Virus record (IMG/VR): IMGVR_UViG_2778261005_000009
DNA from: a virus
Taxonomy: Duplodnaviria; Heunggongvirae; Uroviricota; Caudoviricetes
Length of the DNA stretch: 5,452 bases
Direction: 5' to 3' (one strand)
The notes under the pieces were generated by a model that saw nothing but the letters and a program-made list of their open reading frames with translations, was not told the origin of the DNA and ran no database searches. The position numbers were made by a program, and so were the translations under genes. How positions within the stretch are numbered: position 1 is the stretch's first letter; the number at the start of each line of letters is the position of its first letter. Shown here one piece after another: positions 2,940-4,479 of the stretch.

Positions 2940-3497
2940 ATGAGCACTATTACCAGAGAACGCGCGGAGATTAAATCATACATCACAGGCTTCCTGAGCG
3001 ACTCGGCGCACGATAACAAGTCTTCAGACAGCCTGCTGGCTAATGTGTTTCGTATCGCGCTGGCATCACTGGAAGCAGAGCCGATAGCAATGGTAGTGCC
3101 TGATGAAATGGATTTGCTTACCTGCCATCTCGACGGTGTAACTAAAACATATGCTGATGGCTGGAACGCCTGCCGCGTCGCCATGCTTCAGGCCGGAAAC
3201 TTTCGGGAAAATAAGAATTCGTCAACCAACAATTTTCGGGAAATCTCGGAAACGTCAACCAGATCTCCGATAACTCTGGATGGCTGGATAAGCTGTACTG
3301 AGCGAATGCCTGAAAAGAGCCAGAACGTGCTTATTTCGATGAATATCGATAGCGAGGCTGGGCCATTAATATATTCCGCACGCTATCTCGGAGGCACGTT
3401 CCGGCGCGGAGGTATAGCAGTTAGTCCGGGTAATGATCTTAGGCAAGCAACCCACTGGATGTCGCTACCAGAACCGCCGCAGGAGGTGAATCAATGA
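2940..3497 (+). CDS. DUF551-like phage protein (185 aa)
   Basis: ATG 2940 preceded by AAGGA (2927-2931) at 8-nt spacing; stop TGA 3495-3497. The C-terminal segment (ITLDGWISCTERMPEKSQNVLIS...YLGG..F) resembles the DUF551 domain as I recall it. The linker contains an in-frame tandem duplication (see repeat feature). Confidence 0.75.
   Translation: MSTITRERAEIKSYITGFLSDSAHDNKSSDSLLANVFRIALASLEAEPIAMVVPDEMDLLTCHLDGVTKTYADGWNACRVAMLQAGNFRENKNSSTNNFREISETSTRSPITLDGWISCTERMPEKSQNVLISMNIDSEAGPLIYSARYLGGTFRRGGIAVSPGNDLRQATHWMSLPEPPQEVNQ
3198..3263 (+). repeat. Imperfect in-frame tandem duplication (2 x 33 bp) inside the DUF551-like gene
   Basis: aaCtttcgggaaaATAAGAATTcgtcaaccaAC (3198-3230) versus aaTtttcgggaaaTCTCGGAAAcgtcaaccaGA (3231-3263); encodes NFRENKNSSTN / NFREISETSTR. 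Confidence 0.6.
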
Positions 3498-3577
3498 CCT
3501 GGCCTGAAGCATTCACAACGGTAGGAATTGCGATGGCGGTGGCGCTGGTGGTGTATTCGATTTGCCGCTGGGGATAA
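3494..3577 (+). CDS. Putative 27-aa hydrophobic micro-protein, translationally coupled to the DUF551-like gene
   Basis: ATG 3494 forms an ATGA overlap with the upstream stop and is preceded by AGGAGG (3481-3486) at 7-nt spacing; stop TAA 3575-3577. Product MTWPEAFTTVGIAMAVALVVYSICRWG is a single predicted TM helix. It falls below the ORF-track length cutoff. The SD may be coincidental, since it also encodes residues of the upstream protein. Confidence 0.35.
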   Translation: MTWPEAFTTVGIAMAVALVVYSICRWG

Positions 3578-3612
3578 AAACGGTTTGCGGGAAAAGGATA
3601 GTTAAGTAGAAT
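3574..3612 (+). promoter_or_regulatory. Candidate promoter for the hok mRNA
   Basis: Candidate -10 elements GATAGT (3597-3602) or TAGAAT (3607-3612), with a weak -35 (TTGCGG 3585-3590 for the latter). Placement is constrained by the 5'-3' complementarity, which requires the transcript to start at or before about 3613. No strong consensus match. Confidence 0.25.
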
Positions 3613-3630
3613 TGCTGCGGGTGCTTGAGG
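3613..3630 (+). promoter_or_regulatory. 5' element of hok mRNA complementary to its 3' end (tac/fbi-like long-range pairing, 5' partner)
   Basis: tgctgcgggtgcttgagg (3613-3630) pairs antiparallel with cctcaacgcacccgcg (3993-4008): 6 bp, a one-nucleotide bulge (C3999), then 10 bp including one G-U. Confidence 0.45.
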
Positions 3631-3664
3631 CTATCTGCCTCGGGCATGAACACCAACGGCAGAT

Positions 3665-3739
3665 AGAGAAAAGCCCCAGTTAACATTACGCGTCCTGCAA
3701 GACGCCTAACATTAATCTGAGGCTCAATCTATGAACGGC
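3665..3739 (-). ncRNA. Putative Sok-like antisense RNA (type I antitoxin), about 75 nt
   Basis: Minus-strand sigma70-like promoter (below) would start transcription near + coordinate 3739. The transcript is antisense to the upstream in-frame ATG (3731) and its SD (GAGG 3719-3722). It ends in a terminator-like structure on the minus strand: outer stem ccucag/cugggg (3717-3722 with 3674-3679, one G-U), inner stem gcguc/gacgc (3690-3694 with 3701-3705), then U-tract cuuuucucu (+ 3665-3673). Ends are approximate. Confidence 0.4.
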
Positions 3740-3745
3740 AAATCT

Positions 3746-3774
3746 AGGTTAGCCTCTTACGTGCCGAAAGGCAA
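3746..3774 (-). promoter_or_regulatory. Candidate promoter of the Sok-like antisense RNA
   Basis: On the minus strand: -35 TTGCCT (+ coordinates 3774..3769), 17-nt spacer, -10 TAACCT (3751..3746). The -35 overlaps the hok SD region on the opposite strand. Confidence 0.35.
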
Positions 3775-3787
3775 GGAGAAGCAGGCT

Positions 3788-3943
3788 ATGAAGCAGCAAA
3801 AGGCGATGTTAATCGCCCTGATCGTCATCTGTTTAACCGTCATAGTGACGGCACTGGTAACGAGGAAAGACCTCTGCGAGGTGCGAATCCGAACCGGTCA
3901 GACGGAGGTCGCTGTCTTCGTAGACTACGAATCTGAGAAGTAA
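3788..3943 (+). CDS. hok: Hok/Gef-family type I toxin (51 aa membrane peptide)
   Basis: ATG 3788 preceded by AGGAG (3774-3778) at 9-nt spacing; stop TAA 3941-3943. Product MKQQKAMLIALIVICLTVIVTALVTRKDLCEVRIRTGQTEVAVFVDYESEK aligns along its length with plasmid R1 Hok ([52 protein letters not shown]) and is very close to chromosomal HokD/RelF as recalled. The track ORF 3731..3943 is an in-frame upstream extension (ATG 3731), possibly a mok-like leader reading frame. Confidence 0.9.
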   Translation: MKQQKAMLIALIVICLTVIVTALVTRKDLCEVRIRTGQTEVAVFVDYESEK

Positions 3944-3992
3944 GAGACCAGGCGGGGGAGTAATCTCCCGCCACCTCTGATGTGTCAGGCAT

Positions 3993-4008
3993 CCTCAACG
4001 CACCCGCG
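3993..4008 (+). promoter_or_regulatory. 3' element of hok mRNA complementary to its 5' end (fbi-like, 3' partner)
   Basis: cctcaacgcacccgcg (3993-4008) is the antiparallel partner of 3613-3630. It implies a transcript of about 400 nt, similar to the known R1 hok mRNA length. A further imperfect hairpin lies at 3951-3972 just after the hok stop. Confidence 0.45.
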
Positions 4009-4009
4009 C

Positions 4010-4037
4010 TTTACCATACTGAAAATGCTGTTTGAAT
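4010..4037 (+). promoter_or_regulatory. Candidate sigma70 promoter with extended -10 for the YgiW/BOF-family gene
   Basis: -35 TTTACC (4010-4015), 16-nt spacer, TG at 4029-4030 followed by -10 TTGAAT (4032-4037). Position fits a transcription start about 20 nt upstream of ATG 4063. Weak consensus. Confidence 0.3.
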
Positions 4038-4062
4038 GTTCATCTCTGAAAGAGGACTATGA

Positions 4063-4407
4063 ATGAAAAAGGTATTGATTGCAGCACTTATTTCCGGTGT
4101 GTCTTTTGGCGCTTTTGCACAGCAGGGTGGTTTCCAGGGGCCAGAAGCAGAGCGTTCAACAGTAGCGCAGGCAAAAGAACTGAAGGATGATGCATGGGTT
4201 ATCCTTGAAGGGAGCATCGTTAAAAAAGTGGGTGATGAACGTTATGAGTTTCGTGACAATAGCGGGACAATTGTCACGGATATTGATGACAGCGTATGGG
4301 CCGGGCAGAATGTTTCTCCGAAAGACAAAGTAAGAATTGAGGGTGAAATTGATAAAGACCTGAGCAGTGTTGAAGTTGATGTAAAGGCACTGAAATTATT
4401 AAAGTAA
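4063..4407 (+). CDS. YgiW/YdeI (BOF, bacterial OB-fold) family periplasmic protein with signal peptide (114 aa)
   Basis: ATG 4063 preceded by AGAGGA (4051-4056) at 6-nt spacing; stop TAA 4405-4407. N-terminal signal peptide MKKVLIAALISGVSFGAFA followed by QQGGFQGP, then C-terminal IVTDIDDSVW...VRIEGEIDKD...VEVDVKALKLLK, which matches the BOF/YgiW pattern. Confidence 0.88.
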   Translation: MKKVLIAALISGVSFGAFAQQGGFQGPEAERSTVAQAKELKDDAWVILEGSIVKKVGDERYEFRDNSGTIVTDIDDSVWAGQNVSPKDKVRIEGEIDKDLSSVEVDVKALKLLK

Positions 4408-4424
4408 CCGCCCCTGCTTGTTAA

Positions 4425-4453
4425 GCCCGTCTTACTGACGGGTTTTCTGTTTG
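4425..4453 (+). terminator. Rho-independent terminator downstream of the YgiW/BOF-family gene
   Basis: Stem GCCCGTC (4425-4431) / GACGGGT (4437-4443), loop TTACT, followed by a T-rich tract (ttttctgtttg), 18 nt after the stop codon. Confidence 0.8.
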
Positions 4454-4479
4454 TACATTCCGGCGTATTGCCTTACAAT
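4451..4479 (+). promoter_or_regulatory. Candidate sigma70 promoter for the 4529 ORF / DUF968-like gene
   Basis: -35 TTGTAC (4451-4456), 17-nt spacer, -10 TACAAT (4474-4479). A TGACA-N5-TGTCA palindrome (4502-4516) sits between the -10 and the SD. Confidence 0.35.

Follow-up and report, generated by a model that had tools for sequence, protein, structure and literature searches.

A complete-looking hok/sok toxin–antitoxin locus of the hokW type in a lambdoid prophage sequence

The window analysed here is a stretch of 5,452 nucleotides (nt) of viral DNA (Caudoviricetes; IMG/VR record IMGVR_UViG_2778261005_000009). Its positions 3574–4010 very probably (about 0.9) constitute an intact hok/sok module, an RNA-controlled type I toxin–antitoxin system, of the hokW type carried by lambdoid, Shiga-toxin-type prophages of Escherichia coli and working by the mechanism described for plasmid R1 and for hokW. 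The locus is already known, as the near-identical hokW–sokW of phage Sp5 has been studied experimentally. The identity and architecture of the module rest on profile, structural and comparative evidence, and its transcription, trimming, refolding and killing activity would follow the pattern of its homologues. As a discovery it carries little weight: hok/sok is the founding type I toxin–antitoxin system and prophage copies have been catalogued in thousands of genomes. The window is nevertheless a clean and complete example for understanding the truncated hokD of strain K-12, and the sole remaining point of some interest is whether two common alleles of the Sok tail prevent cross-neutralisation between co-resident modules.

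Toxin gene, messenger and antisense RNA

An earlier note, made from the letters of this DNA, had identified a hok/sok-type toxin–antitoxin locus, and that identification is upheld by profile searches, a covariance-model match, RNA folding and comparison with related loci, together with the published experiments on hokW–sokW (PMC8621323). The open reading frame (ORF) that the note had assigned to the Hok family (3788–3943, plus strand) encodes 51 amino acids and is preceded by a Shine–Dalgarno (SD) sequence, AAGGAG, at 3773–3778. Its product matches Pfam HOK_GEF (PF01848) over the full length (81.1 bits, E 4.3e-23, cutoff 22) as well as PHROG 251, 'MokW-like host killing' (9.8e-33). The coding DNA is identical to that of hokW of Sp5, and the RefSeq name of the protein is 'Hok/Gef family protein' (WP_000813258.1). 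The gene shares its stop codon with a longer, in-frame mok frame of 70 codons (3731–3943, plus strand), which begins at ATG 3731 and is annotated in VT2-Sakai as orf74, 'gef homolog', of 213 nt. The SD of mok, GAGG at 3719–3722 (plus strand), lies 8 nt before this ATG and is equivalent to the GAGG mok SD of R1 (PMC9841398). For the opening of hok by mok translation the R1 literature is followed, and by analogy with it the translation of hok would be coupled to that of mok.

A covariance-model search had been named beforehand in the earlier note as one on which the identification could fail. The Rfam scan covered the whole window and returned a single significant match, to RF01794 'sok', scoring 105.6 bits where the gathering score is 59, over the full model (1–157) at 3619–3793 on the plus strand. 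This is the strand of the hok mRNA, not that of the antisense RNA, and the model spans the tac–ucb stem, the Sok-target hairpin and the stretch to the hok AUG. RF01794 also matches the Sp5, IncY, Pantoea and R1-type loci, and the truncated hokD of K-12 is without a match. Users of annotation may bear in mind that standard records hold the toxin gene only and that the Rfam model named 'sok' in fact matches the hok mRNA strand. Two snoRNA families, ceN48 and sR2, also appeared in the scan, with E of about 0.3 and far below gathering, and were dismissed as chance matches.

The 5′ end of the Rfam match places the start of the mRNA at G3619. A putative hok/mok promoter, read by hand, lies upstream at 3585–3612 (plus strand) and consists of a −35 hexamer TTGCGG (3585–3590), a 16-nt spacer and a −10 hexamer TAGAAT (3607–3612), the latter 7 nt before the 5′ end of the model. 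Across 83 unique related loci the −10 hardly varies, G3609A and A3610G being the only variants. The −35 agrees at only three of six positions, which is why a generic scanner missed the promoter. The 3′ end, just after fbi and near position 4010, is placed purely by homology, so that the predicted full-length mok–hok mRNA (3619–4010, plus strand) measures about 392 nt, in keeping with the length of about 400 nt, and the complementary ends, that the earlier note had proposed for the transcript. Conservation among related loci is lost outside the stretch from about 3600 to about 4015.

The complementary ends are the translational activator element, tac (GGGUGCUUGAGG, 3619–3630), and the fold-back inhibitory element, fbi (CCUCAACGCACCC, 3993–4005), both on the plus strand and named after PMC9841398. 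In the minimum-energy fold of 3619–4010 they pair with one another over 12 base pairs (bp), with C3999 bulged; the z-score of the whole fold is −6.7. The same fold sequesters the mok SD by means of 3674–3677, which belong to the ucb or anti-SD element AAGCCCC (3671–3677, plus strand). When the last 35 nt are removed (3619–3975), tac pairs with 3637–3647 in a metastable hairpin; in the isolated 62-nt fragment 3619–3680, and in the Rfam consensus structure, it pairs with ucb. These three states of tac correspond to the metastable, tac/ucb and tac/fbi states of plasmid R1 (PMC9841398; PMC1635323), and the alternation of ucb between the mok SD (full-length fold) and tac (5′ fragment) follows the published model (PMC9841398). 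Farther downstream, an inverted repeat forms a 3′ stem-loop, GGCGGGGGA-GUAA-UCUCCCGCC (3951–3972, plus strand), whose GC-rich stem of 9 bp is found in the folds of both 3619–4010 and 3619–3975 and stands 38–39 nt before the presumed 3′ end. It is expected to act as the roadblock that sets the 3′ end of the processed, active mRNA: in R1, 39 nt are trimmed from the hok mRNA, up to the roadblock hairpin (PMC1635323), and mutation of the equivalent stem-loop abolishes toxicity (PMC9841398).

On the minus strand, the Sok promoter (3746–3774) comprises a −35 hexamer TTGCCT (3774–3769), a 17-nt spacer and a −10 hexamer TAACCT (3751–3746). It is identical to the sokW promoter of Sp5, in which protection was lost upon substitutions in exactly this TAACCT (primers YO-421/422) and regained when sokW was provided in trans (PMC8621323). 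Its positions and spacing match those of the R1-type locus, and an antisense −10 of the form TAnnnT with a 17-nt spacer is found in 107 of 110 diverse loci. Promoter geometry at one end and a run of U residues at the other define a predicted Sok antitoxin RNA of 71 nt (3739 to 3669, minus strand), made up of a free 5′ tail of 14 nt (GCCGUUCAUAGAUU), one long hairpin and UUUU; the earlier note had anticipated a Sok-like RNA of about 75 nt within 3665–3740. The Sok folds have z-scores of −5.5 and −5.9, and the RNA has full complementarity to the SD and start codon of mok and to the leader. Its length is that reported for sokW, described as a '71-nt complementary sequence' (PMC8621323), and its design is that of R1 Sok, which has 64 nt with a stem-loop and an 11-nt 5′ tail (PMC1635323). 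At this position, neither mok nor the Sok RNA is annotated as a feature in RefSeq records.

Taken element by element, the locus contains hok and mok with their SDs, the two promoters, tac, ucb, fbi and the 3′ stem-loop; the mok ATG is kept, and there is neither an insertion-sequence insertion nor a frameshift.

Conservation of the end-pairing and relation to known loci

Could the small ORF, the complementary ends and the antisense hairpin be chance features of a non-functional spacer? A few observations lean that way. An equal or better 5′–3′ duplex arose 9 times when the downstream 420 nt were shuffled 300 times (p about 0.03), which is modestly unusual by itself, and the generic scanners call neither a promoter nor a terminator. 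Moreover, 3492–3510 (plus strand), upstream of the promoter in a 27-codon ORF, offers the 5′ end of the mRNA an equally good partner (−22.4 kcal/mol); lying outside the predicted transcript, this complementarity is probably coincidental. Since the shuffle test was marginal, a comparative test of the end-pairing was used in its place. A pattern scan with one genome per species yielded 120 loci from Escherichia, Photorhabdus, Pantoea, Erwinia, Serratia, Citrobacter and others. A duplex of the tac–fbi type, at −16 kcal/mol or lower and at an offset of 330–395, is present in 80 of 90 unique enterobacterial loci, and the pairing occurs at the same offset in five reference loci. Eleven distinct 5′ ends were recognized, each accompanied by matching changes in the 3′ partner, such as GGGU...ACCC versus GGGC...GCCC and GCUU...AAGC versus GCCU...AGGC. 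Cognate duplexes have a mean energy of −24.9 kcal/mol and non-cognate ones −20.3 kcal/mol, a difference of 4.6. The cognate partner ranks best in only 3–4 of the 11 rows or columns of the swap matrix, because G–U pairs tolerate many swaps, and on these sequence comparisons the argument for end-pairing is carried by the mean energy difference and the paired base changes. This family-wide covariation, profile and covariance-model matches far above threshold, and the presence of related DNA in 4710 of 5426 complete E. coli genomes (median copy number, two) together refute a chance origin, which deserves practically no credence.

The closest characterized relative of the module is hokW–sokW of the Shiga toxin 2 (Stx2) phage Sp5, also known as VT2-Sakai, with counterparts in 933W-type Shiga toxin (Stx) phages. 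Sp5 is about 98% identical to the window over the module and has the same mRNA 5′ end, Sok promoter, hok DNA, 3′ untranslated region (UTR) and fbi, as well as a downstream ygiW-family gene without an intervening terminator. The upstream flank, including the 27-codon ORF, is likewise common to both. Differences lie in Mok residues 2–5, the first five residues reading MNGKS in the window and MLNTC in Sp5, and in the upstream neighbour: a DUF551 gene in the window and another ORF in Sp5, with only the last ~45 nt in common. In O157 and other Shiga toxin-producing E. coli (STEC), hokW-type copies show 97.9% identity over 3574–4010, and phage records show 96.6% over 3453–4454. Six STEC genomes contain a 99.8% match to the window locus. 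In one strain, 2013C-4538, the prophage order is replication genes, DUF1627, DUF4014, DUF551, Hok/Gef, YgiW family, DUF968, RusA and antiterminator Q. The succession of hok and ygiW also occurs in the Stx phages VT2-Sakai/Sp5 and HUN/2013, where the toxin gene is labelled 'gef homolog' or 'MokW', and is the normal arrangement in Stx phages.

The earlier note had contrasted this setting with that of hokD (relF) in the Qin prophage of K-12. The contrast with the relBE-linked K-12 gene stands; the idea that a position between DUF551 and YgiW genes is unusual does not, this being standard in VT2-Sakai/Sp5 and HUN/2013. The K-12 toxin is nearly identical to that of the window except for the last residues, and fbi and the 3′ stem-loop are kept. 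K-12 hokD is homologous to the window only from about 13 nt ahead of the hok ATG onwards; relBE has taken the place of the upstream part, and tac, ucb, mok, the Sok gene and the Sok target are missing. By sequence, K-12 hokD is thus a truncated derivative and the window the complete form.

Plasmid R1's hok/sok locus (parB) represents a more distant relative, with only 44% identity between HokW and R1 Hok (PMC8621323). The order and spacing of tac, ucb, mok SD, Sok target, Sok promoter (17-nt spacer), hok and 3′ stem-loop are the same, RF01794 matches both loci, and fbi of R1 lies about 370 nt from the 5′ end, as in the window. Compensating changes distinguish the tac/fbi pairs, GGCGCUU/AAGCGCC in R1 and GGGUGC/GCACCC in the window. 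The R1 locus is plasmid-borne and its role in post-segregational killing has been demonstrated.

Two side observations emerged from the comparative set. Tandem arrays of two to four hok/sok leaders, spaced by about 0.5–1 kb, are present at four Photorhabdus loci (L131, L145, L136, L190), and some array members are without a good 5′–3′ partner; clustering of hok/sok in Photorhabdus was noted earlier (PMC1635323). Exact matches to the hok-leader pattern were also encountered in assemblies labelled Chthonomonas, Collinsella, Xanthomonas pisi (a 431-nt contig) and 'Candidatus Scatousia' (L147, L162, L165 and L181), which most likely reflect contaminating enterobacterial DNA or contigs placed in the wrong bin, and not true hosts.

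Proposed action and the benefit to the phage

On the proposed mechanism, a weak constitutive promoter at about 3585–3612 would give rise to a stable mok–hok mRNA of about 392 nt starting at G3619. During synthesis tac would fold onto 3637–3647; once the molecule is complete, tac would pair with fbi and 3674–3677 would hold the mok ribosome-binding site (3719–3722). The full-length mRNA would accordingly escape both translation and binding by Sok; here the structures are predictions, pairing of the ends is a conserved trait of the family and the consequences are those described for R1. Slow 3′ trimming as far as the stem-loop at 3951–3972 would, as in R1, strip away fbi, whereupon tac would switch to 3671–3677, freeing the mok start and forming the Sok-target hairpin. 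A short-lived Sok of 71 nt, transcribed from TTGCCT/TAACCT, would then seize the loop at the mok start with its free 5′ tail and block translation of mok, and hence the coupled translation of hok, after which the duplex would be degraded; promoter and antitoxin activity are known for the Sp5 homologue. Should the supply of Sok stop, the 51-residue Hok would be made, insert in the inner membrane and depolarise or lyse the cell. In Sp5, Hok acts after RecA-dependent prophage induction, speeding lysis and phage release.

The experiments on Sp5 supply the functional side of this picture (Takada et al. 2021, PMC8621323). HokW causes growth arrest. A clone of hokW–sokW does no harm unless the −10 of sokW is mutated, and sokW in trans rescues the cells. 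Both RNAs are visible on Northern blots. After mitomycin C treatment sokW vanishes and HokW is then found in the inner membrane, in a RecA-dependent manner. Deletion of hokW–sokW halves the release of Sp5 phage and leaves growth unaffected (all PMC8621323). Toxicity and antisense neutralisation at the window locus would be expected by analogy, the Sp5 system having the same hok DNA and Sok promoter and the other Sok-tail allele.

Several points weigh against this account. Generic sigma-70 promoter and terminator scans made no call in 3400–4200. This null result is not read as absence, because both promoters have weak hexamers (3–4 of 6 positions) and the Sok promoter has been validated in Sp5. 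The generic scan found no intrinsic terminator after fbi, and the first terminator-like site 3′ of fbi is at 4423–4445, with none between fbi and the YgiW/BOF-family gene (4063–4407). Transcription may run on into that gene as far as 4423–4445, in which case the window version may have a transcript shared by hok and the ygiW-like gene, and such read-through could alter the 3′ trimming. Most relatives, unlike the window, carry CCCGCTTCGGCGGGTTTT directly 3′ of fbi. The switch to tac–ucb was not reproduced in the whole trimmed RNA (3619–3975), which formed the metastable hairpin; the refolding step is drawn from the literature, because only the isolated 62-nt 5′ fragment folds as tac–ucb. Within the first 10 nt of Sok, six differ from sokW (3730 and 3734–3738), with a further difference at 3696 in the hairpin loop, so that Sok is not strictly identical to sokW and is of the hokD type. 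The chromosomal hok loci of K-12, E. coli C and ECOR24 produce no post-segregational killing, according to older work as cited in 10.1101/2025.08.07.668861. Finally, expression and toxicity of this exact sequence are argued from homologues.

A reading in which the locus is a silent relic, complete in appearance and no longer able to kill, as is assumed for the chromosomal hok loci of K-12, would fit the judgement of inactivity that older work, in the form relayed by 10.1101/2025.08.07.668861 and PMC12214031, passed on several chromosomal copies. It would also fit the recombinant nature of the window copy, which joins two paralogue types (see below). Every element is intact, however, which makes a dead relic unlikely; the hok DNA is identical to that of functional hokW, and a mismatch between Sok and its target is impossible in cis. 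Very little likelihood is left to this reading.

The main uncertainty concerns the selected function, be it lysis help, prophage stabilisation or phage defence, followed by the 3′ end of the mRNA. The earlier note had envisaged a prophage maintenance module. The same RNA mechanism might indeed benefit the prophage through the death of cells from which it has been lost or excised, or through protection against superinfecting phages, by abortive infection once transcription of the host has been switched off. Plasmids are stabilised by hok/sok of R1, which also lowers T4 plating, as summarized in PMC8621323. A recent survey of more than 44,000 Hok homologues found hok enriched about four-fold in prophages (10.1101/2025.08.07.668861), and the effect of the Sp5 locus on phage yield is only about two-fold (PMC8621323). 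On the other hand, deletion in Sp5 left growth unchanged and induction with lysis is the only measured phenotype (PMC8621323), hok is not enriched beside defence systems (10.1101/2025.08.07.668861), and the presence of the same Sok allele at up to four places per genome would blunt addiction to any single prophage. Stabilisation or defence is a possible but doubtful explanation. Assistance to lysis on induction is most likely the role of the window locus, by analogy with the close homologue, for which lysis and phage release after induction are the only experimental role (PMC8621323).

Sok-tail alleles and minor features

The difference between the window and Sp5 is concentrated in a block at 3730–3744, where 8 of 15 positions differ; positions 3696 and 3706 differ in addition. 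Within this block lie the first 10 nt of the 5′ tail of Sok, mok codons 1–5 and the loop of the hairpin targeted by Sok. The window carries allele A, TATGAACGGCAAATC, and Sp5 hokW allele B, CATGCTGAACACATG. Hairpin folds were made for both alleles, in each of which the mok frame stays open. A sample of at least 120 loci from IMG/VR, in which one genome only has two loci, contains essentially two alleles: 72 loci with allele A, 42 with allele B and 6 with a close variant. At one related locus of this collection (L105) the block reads TATAAACGGCAAATC, in which ATA replaces the ATG start codon of mok, so that, to judge by sequence, this copy may be naturally silenced.

Co-residence of the alleles was assessed with allele-specific 49-mers against the 5426 complete E. 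coli genomes. Allele A was detected in 1627 genomes and allele B in 627; the two occur in one chromosome in O157:H7 PV15-279, E2865 and strain 120899, and many genomes carry several copies of the same allele, in up to four places. In O157, allele A sits in an intact locus annotated 'hokD' (at 1,163,650 in O157:H7 PV15-279). Such loci have the leader, the Sok-tail allele and the 3696/3706 bases of the window, and also lie in a lambdoid context with DUF968, RusA and Q downstream. They differ from the window in the Hok C-terminus (..FTAYEPEE, of the K-12 HokD kind, versus ..FVDYESEK), in the upstream flank, in the canonical terminator CCCGCTTCGGCGGGTTTT after fbi and in the lack of a ygiW gene. 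Allele A with ygiW downstream is absent among the viral contigs of the IMG/VR sample (at least 120). The window is thus a rare mosaic, with hokW-type flanks, toxin C-terminus and 3′ UTR, and a hokD-type patch covering Sok and the start of mok.

As Sok and its target are encoded by the same DNA, recombination cannot create a mismatched pair in cis. In R1, target recognition begins with the Sok tail meeting the target loop (PMC1635323); since this contact starts recognition, alleles A and B could be insulated from each other. It is tentatively suggested that they form mutually insulated specificity classes and that the window records short-tract recombination that swapped the specificity patch between paralogues, a proposal that at present seems rather less probable than its negation. 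If it were true, insulation would let several prophage hok/sok modules act independently in one cell. Whether Sok-tail alleles cross-neutralise bears on the autonomy of modules in multi-lysogens.

A further observation concerns codon Tyr47 of hok (UAC, 3926–3928), which lies in a 7-nt loop, CUACGAA (3925–3931; hairpin 3921–3935), closed by UAGA/UCUG and present in the minimum-energy and centroid folds of 3619–4010. The differences between the hokW-type and K-12 hokD C-termini fall exactly around this loop. The loop is the same as the anticodon loop of tRNA-Arg(ACG) edited by TadA. Adenosine-to-inosine (A-to-I) editing of the codon would recode Tyr to Cys. A-to-I editing at the equivalent position has been reported for hokC, hokD and hokE of K-12 (PMC12214031).

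Upstream of the module, the hydrophobic ORF of 27 amino acids mentioned above (MTWPEAFTTVGIAMAVALVVYSICRWG; 3494–3577, plus strand) begins at an ATGA overlap with the DUF551 stop codon and stops 7 nt short of the hok −35. Neither Pfam nor PHROG gave a match, and RefSeq has no feature for it. In 41 of 124 related loci the frame is open, always with 27 codons and in 15 amino-acid variants, and it possibly encodes a real small membrane protein.

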